DNA from: an uncultured virus (IMG/VR IMGVR_UViG_2898074128_000002)
Lineage: Duplodnaviria > Heunggongvirae > Uroviricota > Caudoviricetes
Reading direction: 5' to 3' (one strand)
DNA length: 64,000 nucleotides
Virus record (IMG/VR): IMGVR_UViG_2898074128_000002
In this document: piece after piece, positions 935 through 49,614 of the stretch
How positions within the stretch are numbered: position 1 is the stretch's first letter
How the letters are laid out: every line of letters begins with the position of its first letter
Position numbers and translations under genes: made by a program
The notes under the pieces: model-generated
The model's input: the letters and a program-made list of their open reading frames with translations, nothing else
The model's database searches: none
What the model was told of the DNA's origin: nothing

Positions 935-1426
935 ATGACAATCACGATCAAAAACGGAACCATTATTAATGCTGACGAACATATCATCGCCCACCAGGTC
1001 AACGGACTCGGTGTCATGGGTGGAGGTGTGGCAAGACAAATCAAACAAGCCTACCCAGGCGTTTACCGCAGGTACAAAACCTTTGTAGATAATCACACGT
1101 CCCCGGAGGAGCTTCTTGGCAAGAACCTGATGATTGTGACCGACGGAAGACCGGTGTACCAATTTGATAAGGCCGGTAAAGCTAAAATTATCAGCAATTT
1201 ATTCGGTCAGGCCCGCATCGGGACCTCCACTAAACAAACGGACGAAAAGGCGCTCAGAAAGGCTCTTGAACATCTGGCGGAATTCGCCAAGATGGACGGC
1301 TTATCCGTTGCTATGCCCGAGGGTATCGGCTGCGGACGCGGTGGAGGTGACTGGAACGAGGTTCGGACCATTATTGAAGAAGTCTTCAAGGATTATCCCG
1401 TGACGCTGTACCGTTACACAGAGTGA
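935..1426 (+). CDS. Macro domain protein (ADP-ribose processing, Poa1p/DarG-like)
   Basis: HQVNGLGVMGGGVA and AMPEGIGCGRGGGDW macrodomain motifs. Confidence 0.9.
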   Translation: MTITIKNGTIINADEHIIAHQVNGLGVMGGGVARQIKQAYPGVYRRYKTFVDNHTSPEELLGKNLMIVTDGRPVYQFDKAGKAKIISNLFGQARIGTSTKQTDEKALRKALEHLAEFAKMDGLSVAMPEGIGCGRGGGDWNEVRTIIEEVFKDYPVTLYRYTE

Positions 1427-1569
1427 ACTTCAACATTCATACCGTTGCAAACATACCCCTCCCACCTTCTAACTGGTATAATATGGATATACAACATGCT
1501 TCTCATTCGCCTCGATACAAAGCGTTATGGGAAGCATTTTTTATACAAAAATGTAGGGAGTGAAACACT

Positions 1570-1782
1570 ATGGGGTTTTTAAGCCACATCGACAGTAATA
1601 TTATTGTCCTGGGTGTCGGAGCACTCATGCTTCTCGGCAGCTTCGCCACCATCAACAGCAGGAGCGCATCAAAATTCGATCACGACTTCGCTTTGCTATT
1701 ACTTATCGCAGGAATTGTATGTCTCGGAATCGGATTTGGATTCATCGATCTATCAGAACTGAAACACTTGCTACCTGATTAG
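1570..1782 (+). CDS. Small membrane protein (2 TM)
   Basis: Two hydrophobic segments, RBS GGGAG. Confidence 0.6.
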   Translation: MGFLSHIDSNIIVLGVGALMLLGSFATINSRSASKFDHDFALLLLIAGIVCLGIGFGFIDLSELKHLLPD

Positions 1783-1816
1783 TATTACATATTACGTAAT
1801 ACTGTTATTTAACATT

Positions 1817-2227
1817 GTGATTAAATCTTTTTGCGGAAAAGGGGTTGGAGAAACCGTGCCTGCACTCGTAGACAAAATGACGATTAAAAAACACGGGGTT
1901 GACGAAAAACTAGACCGGCGCGTCAAACTGACAGCTGAAGATAAAGAAAGCATCCGGTCGCAGTATTTTAATACTCATGAGAGCGAACGACCGACGATGA
2001 CATGGCTTGCAGCCACCTATGGTGTTGATCGCCGACTGATTCAATTTGTTCTGTTTCCGGAGCGTGAAGCCCGCCATAAAAAGCAAGCAAGCGCCAGACG
2101 GAAGGATGGCCGTTACTATGACAAAGAAAAGAGCCGGCAAAACATGCAGAAATACAGGGACTACAAACGAACACTTGTAGAGAAGGGGAAGATCAATCCG
2201 TCCGAACGGTACGTGGTCACGCAATAA
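1817..2227 (+). CDS. Hypothetical basic protein, possible HTH (true start probably GTG 1856)
   Basis: ORF with MTWLAATYGVDRRLIQFVL HTH-like segment. Confidence 0.6.
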   Translation: MIKSFCGKGVGETVPALVDKMTIKKHGVDEKLDRRVKLTAEDKESIRSQYFNTHESERPTMTWLAATYGVDRRLIQFVLFPEREARHKKQASARRKDGRYYDKEKSRQNMQKYRDYKRTLVEKGKINPSERYVVTQ

Positions 2228-2370
2228 CAAAAGATGCGAGCAAATCAAGCAGTAACAAAGAGCATGCCTATACGGGCCATGCTTTTTTATTTTTAGAAAC
2301 AAACCGCCCTGCCAGCAAAAATAAACGATAGACCCTTTGCTATTTAATTTCAAAAAAAGGGGCGGAAATT

Positions 2371-3225
2371 ATGGAAAAAACAACGGTTGTGAACAAACAT
2401 CATAAAGAGGCATTCGATGTGTACATTGGGCGCGGCTCTAAATGGGGAAATCCATTCTCACATCGGAGTGATACAAAGGCCAAGCACAAAACCGAGACTC
2501 GCGAGGAAGCCGTGGCCAGTTATCGGGAATGGATTCAGACACAGCCCGATCTTCTTGCGGACTTGCATGAACTCAAAGGAAAGAAACTTTGTTGTTACTG
2601 CAAGCCCAAAGCCTGTCACGGCGACGTGCTCGCAGAATTGGCGGATGCACTTGACTCTGTGACCTCAACAAGCCATGAATCAAAAACCGTGATTCATATC
2701 GGCTTCACAGGTCACAGACCAAACAAACTCGGCGGATATGACCTCACGGCACCAGGATACCTGAATCTGCAGGAAGACCTCGAAACATATATCAAACGAA
2801 ATCTTGAGGTGTTCGATATGGTTGTCGGTCATTCGGGCCTTGCACTTGGCGGAGATACCATCTGGTCGAAGGCCATTCTCGCGATGAAAGAGAAATACCC
2901 TGGTCGGGTGCAATTTCACGCAGAAATACCGATGATGGAACAGGCGAGCGCGTGGTTCAAGAAATCAGATATCGATTTCTGGCATGAACAGGTCGAACGC
3001 GCCGACTTCACATCGGTATACGGCTCGCTGGACGGCGTAGAAGAACACAAACGCCGGGGACTCGCTGCGAAATTTCTGAATCTCAGAAACGAAGGTATGC
3101 TCGACCATTCTAACGTCCTGCTGGCACTCCACGACGGATCTTCAGGAGGAACCGGGAATGCCGTGGCGTATGCCAAAGAGACCAATCTTGTGACACACGT
3201 TGTCCATCCGAGCGTTTATTTTTAA
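2371..3225 (+). CDS. DUF4326 domain fused to YspA-like SLOG domain
   Basis: N-term DVYIGRGSKWGNPF...LCCYCKPKACHGDVL; C-term IGFTGHRPNKL, SGLALGGD, RNEGMLDHS, HDGSSGGTGNAV. Confidence 0.85.
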   Translation: MEKTTVVNKHHKEAFDVYIGRGSKWGNPFSHRSDTKAKHKTETREEAVASYREWIQTQPDLLADLHELKGKKLCCYCKPKACHGDVLAELADALDSVTSTSHESKTVIHIGFTGHRPNKLGGYDLTAPGYLNLQEDLETYIKRNLEVFDMVVGHSGLALGGDTIWSKAILAMKEKYPGRVQFHAEIPMMEQASAWFKKSDIDFWHEQVERADFTSVYGSLDGVEEHKRRGLAAKFLNLRNEGMLDHSNVLLALHDGSSGGTGNAVAYAKETNLVTHVVHPSVYF

Positions 3226-12214: not shown

Positions 12215-15200
12215 ATGGCCTATACCTACAAACAAGACGACATGTTTTACGATGTGGAATCACTATCCAATGTATTTACCGTCGCCTGGTGGCTCCCCCA
12301 CCCCGACATGAATGCGATTATTCTGTCTTACCTCGATGATGACAGTATTATTCAGAGTGAGGCAGATGAAGAATATATCCGCCAGTATATCTATCAATTA
12401 CACCCGCGACTGAAAGCCGCTGGAACTCAGATTGTTTTCGAAAACATTAAACATACCGGCTGTATCAATGAGTTTGTCGGTTCAAACGGCAATACCCACA
12501 GCGTTCTTGGCATGCAGAGCTTCGCGAAGCGCTTGGGTCTGGCCAACCAATCGACGTATTTAAACGCTCGCATCGATGACCGCCATAAAGAAGGTGGCGG
12601 CCTAACATACGATCCGGCTTATTATCCGGTAAAGCAGACAGATCCTGACTATGACGAAAACAGCCACGGTTACCGATTTGGTTACAACTCCACGAACTAC
12701 GATTTAACGATCCTGGCTCACTTATTATCTGCCCTGCACGACTGCCATTTTGGTGCCGATTACACGAACCGACCGGTGCTATGGGATTCAAACGTTCCGT
12801 TCACGGCAAGCATGCTTCGTGATTTTAACGATGAGTTATTCGAAGATGCGTGGAAATCAAAGATGGCGATGAGGCTCGCGCATGCTCCAGGCTCTCATCC
12901 GGACTCTTTCGGGGATTTTAAGAAGCCCGGATGGATTTTACGAAAAGGCTGGCTTCTCTCCGGACGCTACATCGATGTGTCCCGTCTGAACGAGAAACTG
13001 CAAAAAGTGGGACTAAAACGGTTGCTCGGTATGCTTGGACTTCAAATTATGGAATCTGAGAAACTGGAAAACAATACAAAAATCAATAATTTAGAAGAAT
13101 TTGCGGATCTTTTGGCTTACAACATCTCTGATGTTGTGAACCTGCAGCTCCTGTTCGAACATAAAGTCTATCAGAATTCCTTTAACGTACGCGGACAGCT
13201 CCTTAAAACCTATCCTCAGACGGTTTACGGACAGAAGAAGGGGTATGCCCAGAACGGCCGGGAGATGCCCGTAGATGACGGGAATTACACGAATATCCGG
13301 AAAGACCGACTCGCCCGTGACTCGACGAGTGCCAAGTTCGTTGAATACGCGATCGCACCATACCAGCCGATTAAGGACATTCCGGCAGTATCATTTATCT
13401 ATCCATCAGAACTCGAAGCGAAGAAGCTCGGTATCGAGCGGACGGACATCTTAGAAGATACGAAGAAATTCTTCGAGGAAAACGTAACAGCAGATCCGTC
13501 CCATCAGGCCCATAAAGATTTCATGGAAATCTATAACTTCTATGATAATATCCGCGGTCACAACTTTAATTCGTCTAAAGCCTATCAACAGCATTACGGC
13601 AGCGGTGCTCAGGAACCAAAAACGAATCAGTATATTAAACAGCTGATGTCTACGTACAACACCAACCTGTTCTATCACCATAAAGATGAGCAGGGCAGCG
13701 TATACCGTTCCTCCTGCCTGGCGAACTTCTCGATCGGAGGGATTCACGGGGCGGAAGTGAACACGACGCTCTTTAACCAGGATGTGACGGAGTACGAAAA
13801 CGAACGTGCGGTTCAGGATTACGTCGAGGGGTTATATGATTCCGCCACCGAGGCGCTGAACGGCCCGACGTATGTCACACTGCCTGCTGACCTTCCTCTA
13901 ACGGATCGTCTGAAAAAGAAGGTCAAAGACGACGGTACGATTAAAATCCGTGATTTCGTGAAGTCAGGCTCCACCAAGGCGAAGGCAACCTGGAGAGACG
14001 TTCCTGGCGTAGACCTGTTCAAAAAGGGTACATCAGGAAGCTGGCACGTCCAGGACAAATATAAGTTTGTGAGTGTGGGAGAAAGCCATCACGAAGACTT
14101 TACGTCATACTATCCGCTGTTACTGTCACGATTATCCGTGTTCATCAATCCGAGCTATCACGGCTATAAGGACAACGGTGATCCGGCTGATCCATATGAT
14201 GACATGTTCCAGGAGCGATTAATTAAGAAAAAAGAAGCAAAAAATATGAACTTATCCGAACTCATTCGTGAATTAGCAAACATCGAGCAGGAATCTCGTA
14301 AACTCTTAATTAACGCGGCATCAGGTGCCGGTGACGCTACATTTGATAACAATATCCGGGCAAATAACGCCGTGATCTCGATGCGTATTATCGGGCAGCT
14401 CTTTGCATGGCGCATTGGACAGGCCCAGGCCCTTGCCGGCGCCCGTGTACCGTCTACAAACACAGATGGCCTGTATACGATGGATATTTCCGCAGAGGTA
14501 AACGATCGTATCTTAGAAGAAATCTCCAAGGATATGTACATCGGGATTGAACCGGAACGATTAGACCGCTTTGTTTCTAAGGATTCAAACAATCGTCTCG
14601 AAGTCTATGAGGGTAAGATAACCTCTGCAAAAGGCGGCACGCTTAACTCCTGGGGTGGTCCGCAACCGACGCAATCATTGGACCATGCTGCTGTCATCGA
14701 CCGTATCTTAGCAAAATACCTGGCCGATGAGCGACTGGAAAATCCAGCGGATCACGAATTCGACCGGGCGCACGCAGAAAAAATGTTCCAGGAGTTTATT
14801 CAGGAACATGTCCAAAATGGCACCCCGCAGGAAGCGCTGAAGTTCTTCCAGTGGATCGTCGCAAGCTCCACCGGTACTCACCGCTATCACTATGCGAAAC
14901 TGGTAAACAAGCACACTGGCGAAATCGCGATTAAGAACTTACAGCATTATAACCGCATTTTCTTAATCAAAGAGACGGGTGAACCGATCCGTCAGGAATT
15001 ATATCTCGCCACACGCCGCGTGATTGATAAGCAGAAATGGACGAAGCGGGAAAAAGAATACAAAAACGGCGAGCGCATGCGCAATGACCTATGGGAGCAT
15101 GATGCAGACGCACTTGATATCTTGGCGCAAAACGGCCTTGACTTAAACGAACATAATCAAAATCCGGCATCAGCACATCACAAAGACGAAGCGAAAACCA

Positions 15201-15361
15201 TGAAGATTCGTACCATGCCGGCTAACCAGCACGTCGGCATCTACAACCAGTCGGTTGTAGACTTGCCGGACGACCAGGCGCTCCAGATGATTCAAATGCT
15301 GGATGTGAAAGCATATACGGACATTCTGGAACACACCTTTAAGTCCTGGTCAAATATTTAA
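12215..15361 (+). CDS. Divergent B-family-like DNA polymerase with 3'-5' exonuclease
   Basis: Exo I FYDVES, Exo II GYNSTNYD, Exo III YNISDV; pol motifs DFTSYYP, KLLINAASG, STNTDGL. Confidence 0.85.
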   Translation: MAYTYKQDDMFYDVESLSNVFTVAWWLPHPDMNAIILSYLDDDSIIQSEADEEYIRQYIYQLHPRLKAAGTQIVFENIKHTGCINEFVGSNGNTHSVLGMQSFAKRLGLANQSTYLNARIDDRHKEGGGLTYDPAYYPVKQTDPDYDENSHGYRFGYNSTNYDLTILAHLLSALHDCHFGADYTNRPVLWDSNVPFTASMLRDFNDELFEDAWKSKMAMRLAHAPGSHPDSFGDFKKPGWILRKGWLLSGRYIDVSRLNEKLQKVGLKRLLGMLGLQIMESEKLENNTKINNLEEFADLLAYNISDVVNLQLLFEHKVYQNSFNVRGQLLKTYPQTVYGQKKGYAQNGREMPVDDGNYTNIRKDRLARDSTSAKFVEYAIAPYQPIKDIPAVSFIYPSELEAKKLGIERTDILEDTKKFFEENVTADPSHQAHKDFMEIYNFYDNIRGHNFNSSKAYQQHYGSGAQEPKTNQYIKQLMSTYNTNLFYHHKDEQGSVYRSSCLANFSIGGIHGAEVNTTLFNQDVTEYENERAVQDYVEGLYDSATEALNGPTYVTLPADLPLTDRLKKKVKDDGTIKIRDFVKSGSTKAKATWRDVPGVDLFKKGTSGSWHVQDKYKFVSVGESHHEDFTSYYPLLLSRLSVFINPSYHGYKDNGDPADPYDDMFQERLIKKKEAKNMNLSELIRELANIEQESRKLLINAASGAGDATFDNNIRANNAVISMRIIGQLFAWRIGQAQALAGARVPSTNTDGLYTMDISAEVNDRILEEISKDMYIGIEPERLDRFVSKDSNNRLEVYEGKITSAKGGTLNSWGGPQPTQSLDHAAVIDRILAKYLADERLENPADHEFDRAHAEKMFQEFIQEHVQNGTPQEALKFFQWIVASSTGTHRYHYAKLVNKHTGEIAIKNLQHYNRIFLIKETGEPIRQELYLATRRVIDKQKWTKREKEYKNGERMRNDLWEHDADALDILAQNGLDLNEHNQNPASAHHKDEAKTMKIRTMPANQHVGIYNQSVVDLPDDQALQMIQMLDVKAYTDILEHTFKSWSNI

Positions 15362-16963: not shown

Positions 16964-17010
16964 TAAAGAATAAAAATGGATGGAATTGGTAATGGAAAGG
17001 GTGAAATTAG

Positions 17011-17184
17011 ATGAAGGAAGTTCAAGTAAAAAGGTTAGGGAAATCCACAGGACAGTTTATTGGAAAATTTATTATAGGATCACTAGCTTTTGCATTCTTT
17101 TACTTTGGTCTGTATCTATTTGCTGAACTCCCTTTTGAGGCGCTGCTCATACTGTTACTCACATGCATTATCGTTGATAAGTGA
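17011..17184 (+). CDS. Small membrane protein (paralog of 17499-17678); below ORF-track cutoff
   Basis: MKEVQVKRLGKSTGQFIGKFIIGSLAFAFFYFGLYLFAELPFEALLILLLTCIIVDK; RBS GGAAAGGG. Confidence 0.65.
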   Translation: MKEVQVKRLGKSTGQFIGKFIIGSLAFAFFYFGLYLFAELPFEALLILLLTCIIVDK

Positions 17185-17241
17185 GCGGCAACAAATAAAG
17201 GATTATTTTTTTTGCACCTATATGACGAAAGGATGAGCTGA

Positions 17242-17415
17242 ATGTTAGAAATCACATTAAAATCCGTAGAAGACGACAGAAAAGAATTCATAGATACGAT
17301 TAACGGCTCGGACATAACGCAAGAGGAATCCGACATACTTATGGGTCTTTTCGATAACGTTATTCAATCCTACGAAGTGAGTAAAAAATATCCAACACTT
17401 AGAGAAACGGTCTAA
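17242..17415 (+). CDS. Small hypothetical protein
   Basis: RBS GAAAGGA; 57 aa. Confidence 0.55.
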   Translation: MLEITLKSVEDDRKEFIDTINGSDITQEESDILMGLFDNVIQSYEVSKKYPTLRETV

Positions 17416-17498
17416 TTATTAATGGTGAACTATTCAATGATTTACGGTTGCTGTTTCATAACCTGATTTCCACGACCTAATAGAAAGGATGAAGCGAG

Positions 17499-17678
17499 AT
17501 GAAGGCAGCTCAAGCAGAAACGCAAGGGAGATCCACAGTACTGTTCGCGGTGAGATTTAGTATAGGATTGCTGGCTTTCGTATCCTTTTACTTTGGTCTA
17601 TATCGATTTGCCGAAACGGAGTACGTAGCTCTGCTCACACTCCTACTCACGGCTGCTTTGGTTGACAGGTTCGGTTAA
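17499..17678 (+). CDS. Small membrane protein (paralog of 17011-17184)
   Basis: MKAAQAETQGRSTVLFAVRFSIGLLAFVSFYFGLYRFAETEYVALLTLLLTAALVDRFG. Confidence 0.65.
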   Translation: MKAAQAETQGRSTVLFAVRFSIGLLAFVSFYFGLYRFAETEYVALLTLLLTAALVDRFG

Positions 17679-17941
17679 TAAGGGAACGGAAGAAAAACTT
17701 AAAAATACAGAAAGGGGAATTTCACATGCTTAAAAAATTCAAAGGTTTCAAATATGAAGAAGTAAAGAAAAAATGGGAAAAAGGCGATGCACTTACAGCA
17801 GAAGAGATAGCTGGTCTTTTCGCTATGGTTGACGCTAAAAATGACAGGTTAGAAGCAATAAAGGCATTAGTGGAAGATTAATAGGTTGTACTAAAATCCA
17901 ATCTGTATAAAGACACCAAACAATAGAAAGGGGAATCAGGT

Positions 17942-18199
17942 ATGGCATTCAGACGAAAAAGAATAAAAGACCCCAACGGCAATTTTAGAGAACACCCTGT
18001 CACCTGCTCCATCTGTAAAGATAAGACAGCCTTTCACACGATGCACGGCGGTCATGTAGGACATTACAAAAACTACGGCGGAAAAACGTGCTGTGACGAT
18101 TGTGTAGTTGCCGTTCGAGAGGAAGAAAACAAGTTACACGCCAGAGACAGCGGTCACATGACAGAGGCGGACTGGCAGACGTGGGGTAATAAGAGTTAG
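17942..18199 (+). CDS. Small Cys/His-rich hypothetical protein
   Basis: RBS AAAGGGG; CxxC and CCxxC. Confidence 0.65.
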   Translation: MAFRRKRIKDPNGNFREHPVTCSICKDKTAFHTMHGGHVGHYKNYGGKTCCDDCVVAVREEENKLHARDSGHMTEADWQTWGNKS

Positions 18200-18675
18200 T
18201 GATTCGACTGTAAAAGAAAGGGTGATAAGTATGAGATTCAAAGTAATTTATCAGCAGGATATAACTATTACTCGCGAAGCGATCGTTAAAGCCGATTCTG
18301 AAGAACAAGCGATGGATAAGGCTTGTGCTGGCGATAGTATCCATGAAAAAGAGATCGAAAGAAAAGTGATTGAAAATAGGCCGAACGAAACGGAACGGTT
18401 AAATGGTTGATACATCTTTAGGGGTCAGTAACCCTTTAATTTGGTGAAAACCTACCGTTTAGACAAAAACTGTGAAGGAGGCAATTTCTAATGGTATCGG
18501 AAAATATGAAAAAAGACATTCAAGAAAGGGCTATGGGCATCATTGAATCGTTAAAAGGAAATGAGGAACTCGCAAATTTCGTGGAAGAATTAGAAGAAGG
18601 TAATGAATTTTAAAATTCTTGTTCGCAGTACGATAAGGTAGTTCAGACAAATACTGTGCAATAAGGAGGAGTCTC

Positions 18676-18885
18676 ATGCCAAGATTCAATATCGGTGATA
18701 AATTTGTTCTTATAGGTGAAGAAGAAAATGTAAAAATTCAAATAACTGAAGTTTGCGACAAAAAACCAAAAATAGAACAAGAGTATGTAGTGAGCGCTTT
18801 CAGTTCATACAAACCAAAAGGAAAAGAGAATTTTTCTCACACTATAAAAGAGAATTTAATATCAAGAAGTTTCAGAAAATCGTAG
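18676..18885 (+). CDS. Hypothetical protein (AT-rich cassette-like gene)
   Basis: RBS AAGGAGG preceded by junction motif. Confidence 0.65.
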   Translation: MPRFNIGDKFVLIGEEENVKIQITEVCDKKPKIEQEYVVSAFSSYKPKGKENFSHTIKENLISRSFRKS

Positions 18886-18963
18886 ATGAAGTTTTTACAA
18901 TATTCAATCCTAATGATAACCTGCAAGATAGAACCAAAATCGGGTACAAAAGGAGGAATGGCT

Positions 18964-19140
18964 ATGAATCAAACATCAAAAATAACTTGCCCTGCATGTA
19001 AGAAAGATCAAAACGAAGACATCCACGATTTAACCATGGACGCAGGAGATATGGACGGTGAATTCCCCCATATCTGTGAGCATTGCAAGAAAGAATTCAA
19101 GGTAGAATTTTGCTATAAACCTTATGTTAGATGTTATTAA
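18964..19140 (+). CDS. Zn-ribbon small protein
   Basis: CPAC...CEHC; RBS AGGAGG. Confidence 0.6.
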   Translation: MNQTSKITCPACKKDQNEDIHDLTMDAGDMDGEFPHICEHCKKEFKVEFCYKPYVRCY

Positions 19141-19601
19141 ACAGCGGGTGAGGTGAAACTTCATGGCCACATTCCAGAGGCAGCTCAAAGCAGAAACGAA
19201 TAAATCCTTTGATGTAATTGACTACGGGAAAGACGGACAATTCCCTGAACCGAGAGTCAAAGGGAAAGATAAAAAACTCCGGTCAAAATACCAGCGCACG
19301 CTGGAAAAAAGGTTTTTGCAGAAAGAATCAAAACAGAATTTAGTTACATAAATAAGGACCCGGCTGAGTCGTAGGGCTGACACGACTACCAGCCGCGATA
19401 AACAGACTGACGTTCCCGGTGCGCTAACGTGGTTGAGCGCATCCTTGTAAAACGCTGTGCGTGTGACCACACACACCACACCCACCGGCTCAAGCGTAAG
19501 GGTTAGGAGAACCGGCTTTTCTTGTGAATTATAAACTACCATTTACGCAGCGTAAGTGGTCTGAAAAGGTCAGCGGGGAACCCTTAATCTCCGCGTTATG
19601 T

Positions 19602-19678
19602 ATGGGCGCATGTTCCAAGGCTGGCGATACGGTCTCCAAAACCGAATGTGGCAGGTTCGATTCCTGCCGCCCGTGCCA
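19602..19678 (+). tRNA. trnW: tRNA-Trp (CCA anticodon), atypical D-arm, encoded 3' CCA
   Basis: Acceptor ATGGGCG/CGCCCGT, anticodon arm CGGT-CTCCAAA-ACCG, T-arm GCAGG-TTCGATT-CCTGC, terminal GCCA. Confidence 0.88.
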
Positions 19679-19747
19679 ATTAAATCATTTATTTTAATAA
19701 ATTATTCGTCTAGGACCAGTTGAGAATTAATACGGGAGGCTTGATTA

Positions 19748-20032
19748 ATGAGACAGTTTGAAATTGTATCTTCTCCAGTAACACAGCAAATCATTAATGA
19801 TATTAGTATAGATAATGGGATTCCCAGCTTCTCAAATCCCTTCACTGTTATCTACACTACAGAGGATCAAGAGTATACGGTAGATACCTTTTCATCGGAG
19901 GATCAAATGAAAAATCACATCTATGATTTGATTGAAAATAAGATGGGGCCGTCCGATAACTGGACTATCTTCGGTGTGTATTCCTTCAATACTCCGATCA
20001 ACCTAACCGTATCGGTATCTATCACTATTTAA
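19748..20032 (+). CDS. Hypothetical protein
   Basis: RBS GGGAGG. Confidence 0.65.
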   Translation: MRQFEIVSSPVTQQIINDISIDNGIPSFSNPFTVIYTTEDQEYTVDTFSSEDQMKNHIYDLIENKMGPSDNWTIFGVYSFNTPINLTVSVSITI

Positions 20033-20626
20033 CATTACCCCCGTGCTAAAGAGGGGGAGCTAACTCCCCCATAAATCCTTACCCGCACTATTTACGATTT
20101 TATTAAAGCGCCTTTTTTCATCGAGCGTTAATTCAGACATGATGTCCCCCTCTTCTCCCCTTCCACATGAGCAATCGCTGGAGAAAAAGGCGGAAACGAC
20201 TCATTTCTGACTGCCGCAATAATACGTTCTTTTTTCATAACAACACTACCTTTCGATAAAGATAGATTAATATTAAATCCCAGGCTGTCTTTGTCAATAA
20301 GAGTTTCTCTAAGACGTGTGTAGTGCATTGTTTTAAGACAATATATAGTCCGGGCACAATTTACAAAGGAGGGCTTGCATGTTTATCCTTATCGAAATTG
20401 ATAATGACTGGACCGTGGGTATTGATTGGAGAAAGCACTGTAAAGGTATTAGGCTTGGCTATTTTGCGATACATTGGTTCAACATGAAGTACAAAGATTA
20501 CATGGGAACAGTGAGTGAAGGGTATCACCAGGAAAGATTAAAACGAATGAAACAATAAAAAATTAATAATTCAAAAGCGTCCTGGTATTCAGGTACAAAT
20601 CATGAAAAAGAAAGGTGCGAGTGTTC

Positions 20627-20881
20627 ATGGCCAAATTAGTTGTAACATATACACCCGATGGAAAAGTAAAGAACGAACTTACATACAAAGATGAAGTTTT
20701 CTCTTACACCATGGTTCCCGACGAGGATGGGAAAACCGGAGATGACAAAGTATTTGAGGTTCAAGTAGCAAATAAATTTCCGAATGAACCGGATGAAGTG
20801 ATAGAGGCTTTAGAGGAATTAGGATTTGCGGATGAAGATGACATTGAAGAGTGTCTCACCACCCTATCAAATTATGAGTAA
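20627..20881 (+). CDS. Hypothetical acidic protein
   Basis: RBS GAAAGGTG. Confidence 0.65.
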   Translation: MAKLVVTYTPDGKVKNELTYKDEVFSYTMVPDEDGKTGDDKVFEVQVANKFPNEPDEVIEALEELGFADEDDIEECLTTLSNYE

Positions 20882-20918
20882 CGAGCGCAGTATGAAAACA
20901 ACGAAAGGAGAAATAAAC

Positions 20919-21161
20919 ATGTCACAAAAATTAATATTAATCTTTTTATTAATGCTCCTTCCGGCCTGCGCTTCGCCCACTGAAGGGTCTGAACCCGCCT
21001 CAGAACGTTTCGGGGTGAACGGTACGACCATCATTACTGATGGAGAAACAGGATGTAAATACTTATTCTTCAAAAATGGGTATGGTGGTGGATTATCTCC
21101 TCTGTATGACGAAAACGGAGAACTGTATTGCGGAATGAAGGGGGAGGATAATCATGAGTAA
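20919..21161 (+). CDS. Small lipoprotein (DUF6440-like)
   Basis: Lipobox LPAC; IITDGETGCKYLF..GYGGGLSPLYDENG. Confidence 0.7.
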   Translation: MSQKLILIFLLMLLPACASPTEGSEPASERFGVNGTTIITDGETGCKYLFFKNGYGGGLSPLYDENGELYCGMKGEDNHE

Positions 21162-21717
21162 CATGAAAGCTATCCCCTTCACCTGCGAACCGTTAACCCT
21201 CGTACGGATCATACTGAACAAATACGCAGAAAACCGGGACGGGTTAGACTCAAAAGCCGTGCAGTTTGCCCGCTATGAGTATCTCACTAAACCTACATTG
21301 ACAGACGATAAACTACGTGAACTCCTGTGCGAATACGCTCAAAAAGAAAACCTGTCGAAAATTACGTTCGAAAACCCAGAGGAAGAAGCGGAGCGCATCT
21401 TTCAGTGTATTTACGAATCGGAAACATACAAGGAACTCCTCTTCGATTTTAACCGGCGCGGGTACGGTCGAACCGGACTCGGTGTTATCGACCTCTCAGA
21501 TCGCTCATTCTACGACTGTGAAACTGCTGAGCATTGGGATAAACTCTTAGAAATCCTAGAGAAAAAGTACCCGAAATACAGGGAGGCTTTAACTTTCCTG
21601 AGTATGTATGAATCACTGGACGAACACAACGGTATGTCACGAAAAGACGTGGATGCGTTTATCCTGGAAACTTTCGATTTCGTCGGAGGGTATCAGCCAC
21701 TGGAAGAATGGTTGTAA
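21154..21717 (+). CDS. Hypothetical protein
   Basis: RBS GGAGG; 187 aa. Confidence 0.7.
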   Translation: MSNMKAIPFTCEPLTLVRIILNKYAENRDGLDSKAVQFARYEYLTKPTLTDDKLRELLCEYAQKENLSKITFENPEEEAERIFQCIYESETYKELLFDFNRRGYGRTGLGVIDLSDRSFYDCETAEHWDKLLEILEKKYPKYREALTFLSMYESLDEHNGMSRKDVDAFILETFDFVGGYQPLEEWL

Positions 21718-22195
21718 ACCAATCAGCGAATAACTTGAAAGTAGCCCGAAACGCTTACTGCGAAGGAGGAAATACCTTGATTAAAGAGGAATCCAAAATA
21801 GGAAACTGTGAAAGGTGCAATAAGAAATTTGTTGTGGTTATGGCTTGCGGTTACTTTGTAGGTTTCTTATGTCACGAATGCTATAAGTTTGTTCACGCTA
21901 TTGAATGATTTACAGCAATTAGAAGCATTCCAGACGCAAATTACGAGGGAGTGAGAGCAGGTGGAATGGTCAATAGAAAAGCAGATGATACACGAAAAAT
22001 GGGCTTGGTACAAATTGAAAGGTTATAACTTTGACCAAATTTTAGAGGCTCTTGAAAACGATAAAGAAATTGATAATGAATTATTAAACAGCATCCTAAT
22101 GGAATCTATCAAAAACAAAACGTAATACACTTTACGAAGATTAACATGAATCTGTAGTTAAGACACAAACAGTGCAATAAGAAGGGGATGAAATT

Positions 22196-22378
22196 ATGGC
22201 ACGAATGAAGCGATATGATAGAGGTTATTTAGATGGTCAACTTGATAGCGCCGAAAACGAATTAGAAATACTTTTAAGAATCAAGGAAGAATCAAATGAG
22301 GATTGGCACGAAAGTAATATTTTAATGGTGAGGATTAGAGACAACGAAGAATTTTTAAAGAAGCATGGGCGTTACTGA
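22196..22378 (+). CDS. Small hypothetical protein (cassette-like)
   Basis: RBS AAGGGG; flanked by junction motifs. Confidence 0.6.
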   Translation: MARMKRYDRGYLDGQLDSAENELEILLRIKEESNEDWHESNILMVRIRDNEEFLKKHGRY

Positions 22379-22433
22379 ACAGTTCGATGAAGTAGCTCAG
22401 ACATAAACTATTCACCAAAAGGAGAGAAAAAGT

Positions 22434-22619
22434 ATGGGTAAAAAATGGATGGTATATGATGACTCCTCAGAAGATAAGATTTTTTATGACACATTAGAAG
22501 AAGCCGAGAAAGATTATAAAGATGCGGTTTCTGATATAGAAAACAACAAATATATAGGCGAACACAATATTTATCTGTTTGAAGTCAAACAGCAAAAGAA
22601 ACTCACTTTTTATCCATAA
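22434..22619 (+). CDS. Small hypothetical protein (cassette-like)
   Basis: RBS AAGGAG; flanked by junction motifs. Confidence 0.6.
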   Translation: MGKKWMVYDDSSEDKIFYDTLEEAEKDYKDAVSDIENNKYIGEHNIYLFEVKQQKKLTFYP

Positions 22620-22679
22620 GGATAATGAACATTTCGAAGATGCTGAACATTAGACCAAAACTGCGAAGGAGGAAAAGAC

Positions 22680-22985
22680 TTGGATTTTAAAAAAGGACAT
22701 TCAAACAGAGGTTTTGGAAACATCGAATTTAAAGATAGATATGGTGCTGAGTGTAGCATAGAGAAATCTTCTTTAGCTACAGAGGATGCAATTTGGTTTG
22801 GTATAAATGACGCTGAACCTAAGATAATGGCTTCCCAGACAAAAGAAGGAGGTACTGGGTGGGTTACTTATGACATTCCTAAAGATGTGTTACTTACTAC
22901 AAGGATGCACTTAACACAAGAGCAGGTTAGGGAGTTATTGCCAATCCTACAAGTGTTTGCGGAAACAGGTGAATTGCCAGATTGA
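22680..22985 (+). CDS. Phage-type hypothetical protein (cassette-like)
   Basis: RGF..IEFKDRYG..CSIEKSSLATEDAIWFG...RMHLTQEQV; TTG start after AAGGAGG. Confidence 0.7.
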   Translation: MDFKKGHSNRGFGNIEFKDRYGAECSIEKSSLATEDAIWFGINDAEPKIMASQTKEGGTGWVTYDIPKDVLLTTRMHLTQEQVRELLPILQVFAETGELPD

Positions 22986-23096
22986 TGCACAGTACGAGGA
23001 CAACCTAAAACAATAACGCCTGTCACATAAGAGCAAAAAAGACGCTCCTGATTTCGTGGCAGGCGTTTTAAATTTACTTAAAAGGAGAGAGAAACC

Positions 23097-25135: not shown

Positions 25136-25378
25136 ATGACCATGTTGACACAGAAACCGAGTAAAGCGAAATCTACTGGAGCAACTACTCTAAAACACGC
25201 CGAGAAAATCATGGACAAAAAGACAAAGCGTAAATACAAAAAGATGTTCAAACAAACAACCCGTCGCAAACAGCGCCTTATTGAAAAACAGGAGACCAGA
25301 CGCATCATCCACGAATATGACCAAGACCAATGGGAGGATGACCACAATGAACGCACTAAATATTCTACCGGCCTTTGA
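25136..25378 (+). CDS. Small basic hypothetical protein
   Basis: RBS AGGAG; Lys/Arg-rich. Confidence 0.5.
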   Translation: MTMLTQKPSKAKSTGATTLKHAEKIMDKKTKRKYKKMFKQTTRRKQRLIEKQETRRIIHEYDQDQWEDDHNERTKYSTGL

Positions 25379-26072
25379 TACGAGCAATCTGCAGAAATCC
25401 AGCCGTGTAATGCACTTAGAACAGGAGCTTACGACTTTGGGGTTCGACCAGGCGCTTAAAGCCTTTGACCTGGTATTAACGGAAATGAGCGCGGAAAAAG
25501 GGTTCAAACGTCATGACGGGTTTCACTATTATTATCATTTGGTGGATGTGGCTCAGATTCTATTAAACTTTGGCATCAAAGATCAGGACATCATCACCGC
25601 TGCCCTCTTGCATGACTTTATTGAAGATGTGGACTGGGGAACATTTGAATACGTCAAAGATCAATTCAATATCCGTGTGGCCAACATCGTCCTCAAGCTC
25701 ACCAAGAAAAAAGATGTGGACTATAAAACCGACCTGGGAGAAATGGATCGCTATCTGAGCGGTATTGCAGACATGTACGAATGCGCGTTAATAAAGACGG
25801 CTGATAGAATTCACAATTTCAGTTCGATGAGAAACTCATCCAGAGTCCACCGGGCCAAGCAGGTCAAAGAAACACGGGACTTCTACATTCCGTTTTTCAA
25901 AGCATGCAGAAATCAGTATGTGCGGTACAGTAACTTCTTCTTCTTTGCCAGAACCACGATTGAGCCGATCCTGCTTGAGATCGAGAAGGGTATCGCTTTA
26001 GAAATCGAAGTTGAACGACTGAAGTCCGAGCTGGCAGCATGCCAAGAAGGAGGTAAAAACCATGAGTCTTAA
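25347..26072 (+). CDS. HD-domain hydrolase, RelA/SpoT/Mesh1-like small alarmone hydrolase
   Basis: RHDG..YYYHLVDVA, AALLHDFIED, IKTADRIHN motifs; no synthetase domain. Confidence 0.85.
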   Translation: MNALNILPAFDTSNLQKSSRVMHLEQELTTLGFDQALKAFDLVLTEMSAEKGFKRHDGFHYYYHLVDVAQILLNFGIKDQDIITAALLHDFIEDVDWGTFEYVKDQFNIRVANIVLKLTKKKDVDYKTDLGEMDRYLSGIADMYECALIKTADRIHNFSSMRNSSRVHRAKQVKETRDFYIPFFKACRNQYVRYSNFFFFARTTIEPILLEIEKGIALEIEVERLKSELAACQEGGKNHES

Positions 26073-26349
26073 TCAGGCCGTTATTTTAAACAGCGGAGGG
26101 TTGACGCTGCAAAAAGTAACCAAAGCCCAGGTTAGGAAAGTGATCCGTGAAAAAGGTTCGTTTCGGGGCTTTATTTGCGGAAATCGGGTGAACCCGGCTC
26201 ATATAAATGACGGGTGGCATCTCGGGATGCAATTCGAAGCGAAAAACGTCCGGGATTTTCAGGAAAGAGTAGACAATTTCGAAGTGGGGCTCCGCGTCCA
26301 TACGCAAGGACTCGGCAGCTACGCCCACTTTTATCAAATCGTGGAGTGA
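26062..26349 (+). CDS. Hypothetical protein
   Basis: RBS AGGAGG. Confidence 0.65.
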   Translation: MSLNQAVILNSGGLTLQKVTKAQVRKVIREKGSFRGFICGNRVNPAHINDGWHLGMQFEAKNVRDFQERVDNFEVGLRVHTQGLGSYAHFYQIVE

Positions 26350-26451
26350 ACAAAAACGGTGGTATTCAAGCGAATACCACCGTTATTTTTTGTGAAACGC
26401 CCCCTCCACCTATTCAAATTATAGTGAAATCAAAAAGGAGAGTGACAGAGC

Positions 26452-26736
26452 ATGACACAGGAACAACAAACAGGAAACAGATTAACGGAAGTTACGATAA
26501 ATACGATTATCACGATGGTGGTGTTAATCAAACAACCACTAAGCGTCAAGATGGCGGACGACAAAGAGTATGACATCGTCTGGAACAAGCAGCATACCGA
26601 GCCGGAACTCATCGAACCGGGAAAAGACGTGACAACCGTCAGAGGAATCGTTCAGATCGTTCGCTGGCTGGAGGAGCAAACTGCCGTAACAGACTGGTAT
26701 GCGCAGACAAAGCATTATACTCAGCCGAACGGCTAA
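26452..26736 (+). CDS. Hypothetical protein
   Basis: RBS AAGGAG. Confidence 0.6.
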   Translation: MTQEQQTGNRLTEVTINTIITMVVLIKQPLSVKMADDKEYDIVWNKQHTEPELIEPGKDVTTVRGIVQIVRWLEEQTAVTDWYAQTKHYTQPNG

Positions 26737-26829
26737 CTCCCCTCCCCTGCTACTAAGAGCCTGACAGATACTCTCTCCTGACAGCCTTGTCCAAAAAACG
26801 ATATAGATACAAAAAAAGGAGTGTTTGCT

Positions 26830-27261
26830 ATGAAAAATCAAAACAACATAACGGAATTTAACGGGGAGTACCACTTTTTGAGCAATTTTTACGAGTCACC
26901 AATCGTGTATAACGGTATTAAATACCGTAACGCCGAAGCGGCCTTCCAGGCGCAGAAACAACCGGAACGGGCGCATGAATTCTCCCCGCTCCCGCCAAAC
27001 GAAGCCAAAAGGCTGGGTCGCAGGGTAAAACTACGCGCCGACTGGGATCATGTGAAGATAGGTATCATGCGAGACATCGTGACCGCCAAGTTTGAACGAA
27101 ACCCTTACCTCAAAGACAGACTTCTGGCTACTGGTGATGCGACGCTCATCGAAGGGAACTGGTGGAACGACAGGTTCTGGGGTGTTTGTAACGGAGAAGG
27201 TCGCAACGAGCTCGGTAAGATCCTGATGGAACTACGAACAAAACTAAAGGGTCGGTCCTAA
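26830..27261 (+). CDS. NADAR (YbiA-like) family protein
   Basis: FLSNFY, EAAFQAQK, AKRLGR, LLATGDATLIEGN, DRFWG, GRNELGKILMELR. Confidence 0.92.
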   Translation: MKNQNNITEFNGEYHFLSNFYESPIVYNGIKYRNAEAAFQAQKQPERAHEFSPLPPNEAKRLGRRVKLRADWDHVKIGIMRDIVTAKFERNPYLKDRLLATGDATLIEGNWWNDRFWGVCNGEGRNELGKILMELRTKLKGRS

Positions 27262-27548
27262 ATGGCTGAAACTATAAGCGTTGAAAATCAACTAGTAAAC
27301 CGCTTAAATGACTTGAATGATGATTACAACACGGATGCTCTCGTCACTGACGAGAGCATTGACCGTGATACCAAACTAAAAGTGTTGCACCTATACGGCA
27401 AGCAGTTCAGTTACGGTCATAGTGCCGCATGGACAGAAGCCATGGCGCTCACCCTGGATGTGCTGGACATTTCGATTAAAGAAATCAACTAACGTCCAAA
27501 ACTTACTGAATCATAAACACAAACAGTTCACTAAGAGAGGGATTTGAA

Positions 27549-27980
27549 ATGGAATTAAAATTAACAATGTATGCCATTGGAAACGAAGATAATGATTCTT
27601 GGTTTAACGCTGAGGCAGGTGGATGGGTGGATGAGTCTGACCTAGAAGGAGAGTGCTTATTTCCAACATTTTATGTCGCTCACAATTACATGGAGGAAAA
27701 TGTGGATGATGAATCAGCAAAGATATATAAAGTTATGATTCTAACAAGTCAGAGTTACGAATATGAACCTGTTCATTTACCTAATGTAACATCGCAAGAA
27801 AAGCTTGACCGTATTGAAAAGGGGGCTTTTATTAAAAAACAAATTTTTATTCTTTTGGAGTTGCTTTTTTGTGTATCACTTATTGTTTTAATAGCTTTTG
27901 TATCTCCATATTTAGCAATGTTTATAATAGATTTGTTAGATAGTTGGTTAAAGTGGCTGGAAGAGATTTTTAATAGATGA
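27549..27980 (+). CDS. AT-rich hypothetical protein with C-terminal TM (cassette-like)
   Basis: Lower GC than neighbours; bracketed by junction half-motifs. Confidence 0.65.
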   Translation: MELKLTMYAIGNEDNDSWFNAEAGGWVDESDLEGECLFPTFYVAHNYMEENVDDESAKIYKVMILTSQSYEYEPVHLPNVTSQEKLDRIEKGAFIKKQIFILLELLFCVSLIVLIAFVSPYLAMFIIDLLDSWLKWLEEIFNR

Positions 27981-28025
27981 GCAATACGAAGAAGAAATCC
28001 CCTAACGATAAAGGAGTGAGGTCAC

Positions 28026-34429: not shown

Positions 34430-34771
34430 ATGGAACAATTGCCCGCAATCAAAATTGGCGATTGGGTCGTCATCACAGAAGACGGTCTTTGGGCTATGAA
34501 TAGCTATACATTTAAAACGAAAGCGCAAGCGATTGACGACGTATCCTGTGCCACACTGGATGTGAGGAAAACCCCTAAAGTGAAACGCCAATCAAAAGGG
34601 GATTATTTTTATTACCCGAAAGACGTGGATTATGGCACATTCGGTGACTCATACAATATTAAAAGAGTAACGAAAGAAAATATAAACGAAATCAAAGAAA
34701 TGCTCGAAGAACAGTGGAAGGAAGATCCGCTAAGTAATTACGATCAGGAAATGAGGGAGAGCGATGAATAA
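34430..34771 (+). CDS. Hypothetical protein translationally coupled to the RT
   Basis: RBS GAGGTG; its stop overlaps the RT start region. Confidence 0.65.
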   Translation: MEQLPAIKIGDWVVITEDGLWAMNSYTFKTKAQAIDDVSCATLDVRKTPKVKRQSKGDYFYYPKDVDYGTFGDSYNIKRVTKENINEIKEMLEEQWKEDPLSNYDQEMRESDE

Positions 34772-35753
34772 TAACAACCCGTACTCCCTCCCCTTACTTC
34801 AGGACGGTCGCCAGCTGTTACATCTGGCTGATGACCGTTTAATTCGTCGATTCAAAATCAAAAACAAGGGGAAACTCCGGGACGTCAATGACCCGGTTCC
34901 TGAGCTGAAAACCATATTGAAAGCCTGGAACGGGCCGCTTACCGATTACTACGTCCGACAGCTGCAGCTAAACGGCGTCAGCCACGTTGCTCATGCGTAC
35001 CTGCCGAACCGGTCGATTCAAACGAACGCGCAGGCACATCTCTACTCCCCCATCATCCAGTTTGATTTCAAAGGATTTTATGACTCCTGTAAGTTCGACT
35101 ATTTCAGGGAGTCTCTCCGTGACCTTGATCCGACGCTCGACGATCAAAACGAATATGTGATTAAACGGCTCTTGATCGACCCGAACACGGGTGGTGTAAC
35201 GCAAGGGCTGCCCGTCTCGGGAGCCCTTGCAGGACTCTCGCTCATTCCGTTTTGGGTAGAACTGGCGAAAAGTCTACCTGACAACATTCGTTTTACCCAG
35301 TACTCAGACGATTTGACGTTTAGTTATACGGGCCAGACACCACCCGGGTTTACCGTGCCCGCATTGACGCAAAAGATTTACGAGGTGTTAAAGAAAACAG
35401 ACCTCTCTTTTAAATTAAACGCCGATAAGACACGCACGCAGAAAGAGCAGTACCGGAAAGTAACTGGTATCCGAATTAACCATCATAACCAGACGACCCC
35501 GTCCCGGGACGATTACCGCTTTCTGCGCCATGCGCTGTATATTCTTTCTAAATCCGATGATCTGGATAAAGAACTTGCCGAATGGGGATTCGCATCGAAA
35601 TCCGCTTTCGTTGGTAAAGTCAGCTACATGCGCTCGATTGATTCCACCGGGAAAATCGACCGACTAATAATGAAATACCGTACCGCCTGCCGGAAGCATG
35701 ACATCTTTACAACGTGGATCGACCAGGCGTATAAACGAAGTGCTTTCGCGTAG
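34764..35753 (+). CDS. Retron-type reverse transcriptase (stand-alone, 329 aa)
   Basis: AHAY..NRSIQTNAQAH (retron region X NAxxH), FDFKGFYDS, TQGLPVSG, catalytic YSDD, KVTGIRIN (retron region Y VTG). Confidence 0.9.
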   Translation: MNNNNPYSLPLLQDGRQLLHLADDRLIRRFKIKNKGKLRDVNDPVPELKTILKAWNGPLTDYYVRQLQLNGVSHVAHAYLPNRSIQTNAQAHLYSPIIQFDFKGFYDSCKFDYFRESLRDLDPTLDDQNEYVIKRLLIDPNTGGVTQGLPVSGALAGLSLIPFWVELAKSLPDNIRFTQYSDDLTFSYTGQTPPGFTVPALTQKIYEVLKKTDLSFKLNADKTRTQKEQYRKVTGIRINHHNQTTPSRDDYRFLRHALYILSKSDDLDKELAEWGFASKSAFVGKVSYMRSIDSTGKIDRLIMKYRTACRKHDIFTTWIDQAYKRSAFA

Positions 35754-48750: not shown

Positions 48751-48905
48751 TGAAAGATTTTCATTTTAAGTCATTCGGATTAGGGGTGTTACTCGCTTGG
48801 TTAGTGACAAATGTGACCTGGACTGTATTTTAGTCAATCGAACAGTCCAGACACATAGTACGTAACAAAGTAGAAAATAACTACAAACTAAAGGAGGGTG
48901 TCGGT

Positions 48906-49106
48906 ATGAAGGTAGGAAAAAAAGTAGTAGTTTTAAAGAACGGGGCGTTATTAACAGCCGTCATTGAAGAAAAACATATCTGCCGTAGCATAATCGAATA
49001 TAAGGTCAAATATCTGGATAATAATGAAGTTGATTACGTTTCTGCAGCGCAAATAGTAACTAAAAAGGTTAGTGATGACACTATCAAAACATTAGAAAAT
49101 ATTTGA
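48906..49106 (+). CDS. AT-rich small hypothetical protein (cassette-like)
   Basis: RBS AAGGAGG; flanked by junction motifs. Confidence 0.6.
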   Translation: MKVGKKVVVLKNGALLTAVIEEKHICRSIIEYKVKYLDNNEVDYVSAAQIVTKKVSDDTIKTLENI

Positions 49107-49614
49107 TAAAACTATAATGATAGTTGCGAAATACGAATATGTAGCTCAATTAATTGAGGTGGAATGATGAAAAATTTTCTACAAATAACCCTCTATTATG
49201 CTGGAATGACATTAATAATTTTATCGGCAAAAATTGAAAGAAATACTTCGCTGATAAATGATTTTAAAAGGAACAGAAAAGAAGCCCTGGTGGCGTATAG
49301 AGCCAGAAACAAATGATTTACAGCCAACAAGGGGAAATCTAAGACGAAATACTTTTTAAAATTGGTGGTGGTAAAATGTTGTGGATTATCCTTGCATCCC
49401 TGATTTACCTGCTAATAGGATTTTTCTTCTCAAAACCGGATAACTGGAACATGATACAGAAAGTCCTCGCTCATATATTTTGGCTACCGCTGGTTATTTT
49501 TGTGGTTATTATAGTCAGACTCGGTGAAGTGAAAATCATGTGATTTGTATAAAAAATATTACATTATGTTATTACATCTTACGTAATTATATTACTTAAT
49601 AAGGAGGCTAAATC

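Follow-up and report, generated by a model that had tools for sequence, protein, structure and literature searches.

Gene cassettes on a conjugative-type megaplasmid end in sites of an apparently undescribed gene-exchange system of Bacillales

How small accessory genes find their way into phage genomes, precisely at gene borders, has long been an open question. It is raised anew by a stretch of 64,000 nucleotides listed as an uncultured virus (IMG/VR record IMGVR_UViG_2898074128_000002; hereafter, the window is this whole stretch), in which a preliminary description had seen, at positions 17400–23010, an integron-like array of small gene cassettes bounded by a hairpin-forming junction motif. 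This block carries cassette ends of a site-specific gene-exchange system of Bacillales, apparently undescribed, of which the window is an orphan and partly decayed example; the system can be likened to an integron or to a pdif array, yet it is a member of neither. We propose that the junction motifs are halves of 24-base-pair (bp) sites bounding swappable units, and that these sites are recombined as double-stranded DNA by a putative Xer-like tyrosine recombinase that tolerates unlike spacers and acts in trans, a reading to which we assign a probability of roughly 0.6. It builds on directly observed features of the system: the geometry of the sites, their polarity and two spacer classes, genes gained and lost at the spacers or next to them, the co-oriented arrays and an integrase clade bracketed by sites.

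The window corresponds to G000:C2:116460-180459, part of a second replicon of 234,850 bp. Pfam identifies Rep3, ParA, a MobL relaxase, a type II/IV secretion ATPase and a lysozyme-CHAP protein on this replicon, which we therefore regard as a conjugative-type megaplasmid; no capsid or terminase family was matched among the 65 open reading frames (ORFs) of at least 230 amino acids (aa) outside the window. Its host is taken to belong to the Bacillales, judging from the genes of its relatives. The G+C content is lower in the block (36–44%) than in its flanks (46–47%), and several block genes have phage homologues, those at 22196 and 22680 among them (Table 1). Close relatives of the block were absent from phage and plasmid collections and from 60 related genomes, where the matches were to the transfer RNA (tRNA) or to single genes. 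As the preliminary description had stated, no recombinase is present in the window (none among 74 ORFs by Pfam); the plasmid encodes two tyrosine recombinases, both outside the window, as well as two IS110-family transposases. The same description had called the block genes co-oriented and apparently promoterless, and the sequence bears this out, with a single sigma-70-like match on the plus strand between 16700 and 23300 and five in all, against a shuffle mean of 14.5.

The letters of the motif stand at every place at which they were originally noted. Weight matrices for the two half-sites were trained on 19 upstream-type and 20 downstream-type sites from other loci and none from the window, and are only partly independent of it because patterns or genes taken from the window had served to find the training loci. 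They yield four upstream-type and five downstream-type matches of at least 11 bits in the block (16970–23060), all on the plus strand, against means of 0.21 and 0.23, respectively, and a maximum of 2 in 300 dinucleotide shuffles; the density per kilobase (kb) and strand is 0.66 and 0.82 in the block versus 0.016 and 0.024 in the chromosome. Nine of the 16 positions first listed thus prove strong (18461, 22652, 22626, 22161, 18645, 22376, 22986, 18622 and 22126; scores in Table 1), five are weak (the variant at 21741, 21932 and 22399, and 17426 and 20884 at 6.5 bits each), and two, 17911 (−6.7 bits) and 20336 (−9.3 bits), are unsupported by the matrices. Both ends are carried by 5 of the 20 small ORFs in 17011–22985 (18491, 21961, 22196, 22434 and 22680). 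Since 19.0–21.7 kb has no strong site, the array falls into two clusters and is not continuous. Gene-enclosing pairs scoring at least 8 bits at both ends number only six genome-wide, four on the plasmid and two in a chromosomal prophage. Applied to 301 and 351 genomes, half-site patterns were too strict or not above a reversed control, and the half-site alone is consequently not significant genome-wide; two half-site pattern searches gave mostly chance matches (about 2 of 26 were real in one, a few of 25 in the other), and the bipartite pattern had none in viral contigs.

The unit behind the half-sites is 24 bp long and consists of a 9-bp arm, a 6-bp spacer and an inverted 9-bp arm, with the consensus TKCRYAKTW-N6-WAMTRYGMA. 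It occurs in two types: the spacer of type a begins with GA and the site stands 5′ of the cargo, while the spacer of type b begins with C and the site stands 3′ of the cargo. Outer flanks fit the arm model only where they abut the spacer, scoring on average −1.0 bits (24 left flanks) and −3.4 bits (24 right flanks) at offset 0, compared with −10 to −17 bits at other offsets and −13.0 ± 1.4 bits for random sequence. The distance between paired arms peaks at 6 bp (16 pairs versus at most 7 at any other spacing, after removal of 5 of 32 cassette rows). Because the DNA outside the cassettes resembles the 9-bp arm only next to the spacer, with the arms of a pair 6 bp apart, we take each junction to be a 24-bp site. 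Within each class the first two to three spacer bases are conserved and positions 4–5 vary freely, while the length stays at 6.

This geometry recasts the hairpins originally described between neighbouring cassettes as b sites connected to a sites through a short linker, which is a shared 9-mer in two of the junctions and measures 12 and 21 bp in another two: the two motif halves are not the arms of one hairpin but the inner halves of two different site types. Inverted complementarity is indeed present, but on neither strand do the four window junctions fold better than shuffled sequence (z from −0.87 to +0.67). The ends of 26 cassettes, left after the removal of 12 duplicate loci and then of 6 of 32 rows (near-duplicates or off-register), are no more complementary to each other than shuffled pairs (permutation p 0.28; fold p 0.33–0.65), and the motif is thus a sequence consensus and not a selected fold. 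A model in which each cassette's own two ends form a hairpin was dropped for want of any excess in complementarity or folding over shuffles. Rfam and TRF returned nothing.

The same ends accompany gene gain and loss in other replicons, in keeping with the gene capture and shuffling that had been suggested for the block. Single small genes in unrelated phages and prophages (L004, L060, L065 from Virgibacillus, L066 from Parageobacillus, L070 and L097) carry both halves, with the upstream one preceding the ribosome-binding site and the downstream one following the stop codon. In a prophage slot defined by one 18-bp flank, a b-like end directly precedes the flank in 11 of 12 viral loci, with eight different last genes; the twelfth locus looks like a chance match, and a rare b spacer accompanies one flank variant in all three of the cargos concerned. 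One cassette of 275 bp occurs in two contexts with 98% identity, which sets in with the opening base of the a spacer and stops with the closing base of the b spacer. Around phage loci with a 180-aa integrase, accessory regions hold 33 half-sites in sense and 6 in antisense orientation (23 of 36 loci). A chromosomal prophage located at comG (G000:C1:4692000-4716100) encodes a large serine integrase, two site-bounded cassettes and a truncated tyrosine recombinase of the 180-aa type behind ArpU.

A relative of the plasmid was represented by contigs from X2 and X3, two runs of one metagenome study; parts of the block without contig cover in X2–X4 were not counted as absent, and run X4 holds a small share only. 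X2 and X3 replace 22178–22651: X2 departs from the window after 22177, and both rejoin it at 22652, one base before the spacer of the site at 22644–22667, behind a b site of their own and a 9-bp linker identical to window positions 21924–21932. Other DNA therefore stands in place of genes 22196 and 22434. Run X4 has an a-like site before 17710, where the window has none, and no joint indicative of a circle was found in the contigs of four runs.

On chromosomes the sites form arrays. Of 301 genomes of the order, 76 contain the exact 24-bp pattern, in up to 14 copies, against approximately 33 genomes (counted by eye) and at most 2 copies for a reversed control pattern. Among 26 stretches picked around pattern matches, 25 contained sites, and 96 of the 99 sites in these are co-oriented. 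The arrangements comprise a-genes-b (25), b-short linker-a (20), b-b (13), a-a (6) and b-long-a (5), and the usual order is a, cargo, b, short linker and a, with linked sites about 60–80 bp apart and an inverted repeat visible by eye; the cargo genes face either way. Homology blocks among array loci end within 35 bp of a spacer in 39 of 70 cases versus 7% expected, though many of these pairs are the integrase module and not independent. In one genus, two genomes each give more than 100 BLAST matches to a non-coding repeat of 470–590 bp that ends in a and b-like sites (Table 1); orthologous repeat slots keep the sites and both outer flanks, and their content differs. Chromosomal-type sites also occur in the plasmid's host, at C1:901186, 898352, 3748371 and 4704367 and on C4, where a near-perfect b site (G000:C4:3691-3714, on a 5.5-kb contig) follows two transporter-like genes. 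Elsewhere, two b sites enclose genes for a 572-aa ATPase-like and a 586-aa helicase-like protein beside serine-recombinase-like genes (L251:7996-12160, G211:C1), a two-gene module that by eye looks like a nuclease-helicase defence pair.

A linked tyrosine recombinase, which the preliminary description had suggested looking for, was found in other genomes. In one array a 329-aa Xer-like protein (L272:1462-2448, minus strand) is encoded between a b and an a site; its motifs can be read as R, K, HxxR, H and Y, which we take to be the catalytic set. It falls below the cut-offs of the XerA, XerC, XerD and IntI models, the best being XerA-like and just under its cut-off, scores 89 bits on the IntI model TIGR02249 (cut-off 265) and aligns with the solved IntI4 only over residues 251–314. 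Of 301 genomes, 23 hold a match to it at E ≤ 1e-60. In its close clade (at least 70% identity) sites lie within 600 bp in 6 of 7 genome loci, as against 0 of 8 among relatives of 46–60% identity, 3 of 12 in a 40% group and 3 of 27 other integrases (5 of these 27 had no tblastn match and were counted as site-free), and 6 of 7 metagenome contigs with an integrase of the clade have it bracketed by sites. Four of the seven genome loci and five of the seven metagenome contigs have an a site 3–12 bp behind the integrase, with a left arm of the constant type and variable DNA downstream. All seven close-clade genomes match the site pattern, versus 76 of 301 overall, although kin among them are not independent. 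The clade has a Shimodaira–Hasegawa-like approximate likelihood-ratio (SH-aLRT) support of 100 and groups among the 46–60% relatives, which we presume to be prophage-borne, apart from rows of XerC/D type (a quick tree, from which L264 dropped out); no sites were found alongside the XerC/D-type genes. Close homologues of the integrase come from several Bacillaceae genera and are named only generically in databases.

Other candidates for the enzyme appear less likely. The 180-aa integrase behind ArpU ranks lower, with full sites at only 6 of 47 loci in spite of its half-sites, because no sites were seen flanking its gene in those scans and because sites occur in L065 and L066 where this integrase is missing. 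Of the 46–60% relatives none is bracketed; 72 kb upstream of them hold six sense and two antisense half-sites.

Comparisons of spacers suggest where the exchange may take place. Pairs of a sites with only the left flank in common differ within spacer positions 3–6, the spacer being identical in one of five; in the single clean pair with a common right flank, the spacer is the same throughout and the difference falls at the last arm base. In two cases the same left context leads into an a spacer at one place and into a b spacer at another. Homology-poor exchange is documented for Y-transposases, Tn1549 Int among them (PMC5871717). We postulate that the Xer-like recombinase would recombine the sites as double-stranded DNA, one subunit binding each arm and cutting probably at the spacer edges, and would tolerate unlike spacers in the manner of Tn916/Tn1549 Int or IntDOT. 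Given such tolerance, DNA between two successive sites could leave as a circle and enter another site, and each new junction would retain the spacer of either the cassette or the target, giving rise to the a-b, b-b and a-a patterns. The main entry point may be the a site just behind the integrase stop. The enzyme is predicted to act in trans on phages and on the plasmid, whose block would represent a stack of phage-derived cassettes; entry at degenerate secondary sites is suggested because most outer arms in the window are poor, the site at 22644–22667 alone being complete. A wider view, which we hold tentatively and place a little short of even odds, is that this is the Bacillales counterpart of the integron: a prophage-derived Xer-like integrase would capture genes between alternating 24-bp a and b sites, build cassette arrays on chromosomes, feed single-gene cassettes to temperate phages and megaplasmids and mobilise a non-coding repeat, all with one site code and homology-independent spacers.

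Several observations weigh against recombination by this enzyme. No filled/empty triplet was found among 555 sites, nor at the prophage slot or the repeat slots. Inheritance of b spacers is mixed, with identical spacers in 2 of 15 pairs sharing the right flank versus 3 of 4 sharing the left, and the pairs and genomes compared are not independent. Breakpoints in the plasmid relatives agree with the sites only in part: the rejoining at 22652 does, but the left break at 22177 lies one base past the inner arm and not at the spacer, and the replacement of 19685–20623 in X3 has neither end at a site. The plasmid's host has no intact integrase, only a decayed fragment at C1:3750725 (58% identity over 65 aa); the plasmid's own two recombinases are not matched by the L272 integrase, several site-rich genomes (for example, G322 and G257) have no match to it at E ≤ 1e-60, and the viral scan contained no close relative.

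The lack of empty sites would be accommodated if the same sites, probably with the same enzyme, recombined only with their like (a with a, b with b), content being swapped by two crossovers through cointegrates without excision, as proposed for the pdif/xrs modules of Acinetobacter. That slots retain both outer flanks while their content changes, that the first two to three spacer bases are conserved within each class and that xrs cassettes behave in this way (PMC11705084) would all fit. We nevertheless consider it unlikely, as spacer positions 3–6 vary among cassettes in one slot, while xrs recombination needed closely related central regions (PMC11705084), as a and b spacers alternate behind one left context, and as the sites here are direct repeats, in contrast to xrs pairs, most of which are inverted and/or have dissimilar central regions. 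The motif might also be a regulator-binding or RNA-level signal at gene borders that would offer phage annealing proteins a short stretch of homology only as a side effect, with no dedicated recombinase. The sense polarity of the half-sites in phage accessory regions, their position next to ribosome-binding sites and stops, the poor outer arms of the window and the lack of a cognate enzyme in the plasmid's host speak for such a signal, which we judge quite unlikely given that chromosomal cargo lies in both orientations with the sites still co-oriented, that an integrase gene is flanked by sites on both sides and a dispersed non-coding repeat terminates in them, that identity breaks sharply at the spacer edges, and that neither an RNA or DNA fold signal nor an Rfam match was detected.

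Small non-autonomous elements with 13-bp inverted ends, crossing over at a GA dinucleotide by means of a serine recombinase or an IS30/IS110-type enzyme, appear highly unlikely. GA often stands at both outer ends of phage cassettes, a 9-GA-9 form occurs at two loci (L143 and L169) and the plasmid has its two IS110-family transposases. A model of 13-bp arms with a GA core was nevertheless dropped because GA closes just 28 of the 52 chromosomal b spacers, so that the same 2-bp core is not present at both ends, and on the spacing of the arms, which would have to be 2 and 10 bp and peaks at 6; the enzyme found beside the sites is, moreover, a tyrosine recombinase. The attC likeness of the preliminary description fares worst, and we regard true attC-like sites recombining as folded single strands as very nearly negligible. 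Small, co-oriented and apparently promoterless genes with palindromic junctions did invite it, as do some arrays headed by an integrase with an adjacent degenerate site. Against it stand the absence of any fold or own-end covariation beyond shuffles, a core-type 9-6-9 site fixed at 24 bp, a linked enzyme far below the IntI cut-off and cargo in both orientations on chromosomes; integrons are, besides, extremely rare in and almost absent from Firmicutes (PMC9024848).

Table 1 Sites, cassettes and related features (window positions unless a locus is given)
Feature	Position	Strand	Details
a-type site	18453..18476	+	Spacer GACAAA 18462-18467; 23.3 bits; arms −6.5 / 12.1 (outer poor, inner strong)
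40-aa cassette gene	18491..18613	+	a and b ends
9-6-9-6-9 junction	18622..18660	+	b spacer CGATAA, linker 18637-18645 (9 bp), a spacer GACAAA; 13.6 + 15.8 bits
69-aa gene	18676..18885	+	a end only; no b end found
Weak a-like site	21741..21764	+	8.1 bits; inner arm perfect (12.4), spacer atypical; precedes 43-aa gene 21777-21908
Degenerate b half, linker and a site	21909..21947	+	9-bp linker 21924-21932; a spacer GACGCA; 7.7 bits
54-aa cassette gene	21961..22125	+	a and b ends
b site and a site	22126..22176	+	b spacer CGAAGA; a site 22153-22176, spacer GACACA; 12.7 + 17.7 bits
60-aa cassette gene	22196..22378	+	71% identity to gene of SPbeta-like phage Goe11; replaced in plasmid relatives
b site, linker and a site	22376..22414	+	b spacer CGATGA, 9-bp linker 22391-22399, a spacer GACATA; 15.8 + 6.6 bits
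61-aa cassette gene	22434..22619	+	Bacillus phage Kirov has a partial match; replaced in plasmid relatives
b site and complete a site	22626..22667	+	b spacer CGAAGA; a site 22644-22667, spacer GACCAA; 19.6 + 22.9 bits
101-aa cassette gene, phrog_3849	22680..22985	+	Two closest phage homologues (82–85%) have site ends; more distant ones do not
b half-site ending cluster	22986..23009	+	Spacer CGAGGA; 15.6 bits
Inverted repeat after block	23006..23076	+	Terminator-like by eye
Single cassette beyond the range first described	27507..28001	+	a end, 143-aa gene 27549-27980, b end; 10.3 + 17.3 bits
Weak candidate cassette	48841..49148	+	Around 66-aa gene at 48906; 9.4 + 12.1 bits
Non-coding dispersed repeat with site ends	L252:6241-6744 (G322:C7) and relatives

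The window has further features of its own. A tRNA-Trp(CCA) gene inside the block (19606–19678, plus strand) matches phage tRNA-Trp genes; ARAGORN and Rfam missed it at default settings, and it was called at a relaxed score. A small membrane-protein gene is duplicated at 16990–17127 and 17478–17615 (77% identity over 138 bp). Ahead of the block, a divergent DNA polymerase of 1048 aa (phrog_1252; 12215–15361, plus strand) adjoins a D5-type primase-helicase and has plasmid relatives only in Streptomyces, Rhodococcus and Gordonia (three actinobacterial plasmids). A 329-aa reverse transcriptase (RVT_1; 34764–35753, plus strand) is not part of a diversity-generating retroelement because it has no repeat partner on the plasmid; it contains NAxxH and VTG motifs, which we take to be marks of retrons. 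By Pfam, HD-domain, NADAR, macrodomain and SLOG-family genes lie on the plasmid backbone (window 25281–27261 and 935–3225) and are possibly a nucleotide-modification or counter-defence set.

We found no description of such sites or arrays in Bacillales in the full-text literature searched, which takes in a minority of the subscription journals, so that their absence from print is not established. For this order, the system offers a testable answer to how small genes reach exact gene borders, with a defined 24-bp substrate, a candidate enzyme and natural donor/target pairs in phages, plasmids and chromosomes. The arrays would also offer a way to mine accessory genes, and a recombinase that accepts unlike spacers with 24-bp sites could serve as a cassette-exchange tool for Gram-positive bacteria.

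Among known systems, integrons share with these loci the arrays of accessory genes with co-oriented sites between them, the existence of orphan arrays without an enzyme, and a tyrosine recombinase gene with an adjacent, more degenerate site behind which the downstream cassette differs between genomes. An a site of the primary-insertion type does stand next to the integrase gene here, and probably functions in entry. Unlike integrons, however, the system has fixed 9-6-9 cores of two alternating types in place of variable hairpins, and the 7-bp crossover core GTTRRRY (PMC8876359) is absent from the consensus. Its linked enzyme is not IntI, the integrase is co-oriented with the array and itself bracketed by sites, and chromosomal cargo occurs in both orientations. 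The pdif/xrs modules of Acinetobacter plasmids, served by XerC/D, likewise hold accessory genes between two sites of the arm-6bp-arm form with divergent central regions, and their content varies in related replicons; they differ from the present system in its 9-bp near-symmetric arms, its direct repeats, its occurrence in Gram-positive phages and chromosomes and its linkage to a separate integrase clade instead of the housekeeping XerC/D. The arms are also unlike those of dif.

The conjugative transposons Tn916/Tn1549 and CTnDOT resemble the system in their short inverted arms, a crossover region of 5–7 bp free to mismatch (PMC5871717) and variable junction hexamers. In contrast to them, the units described here are 0.2–4 kb long, mostly lack an enzyme or transfer genes of their own and are stacked in arrays; their arms are not AT tracts, and their spacers fall into two conserved classes. 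Where Tn916 and Tn1549 carry Int, Xis and transfer genes, the window units hold one small gene each and the arrays hold unrelated cargo. Morons and hypervariable accessory slots of temperate phages likewise present single small genes, inserted between conserved phage genes, that vary among relatives, but the borders of the present cassettes are defined, polarised sites in common with chromosomal arrays, and the cassettes apparently have no promoter of their own.

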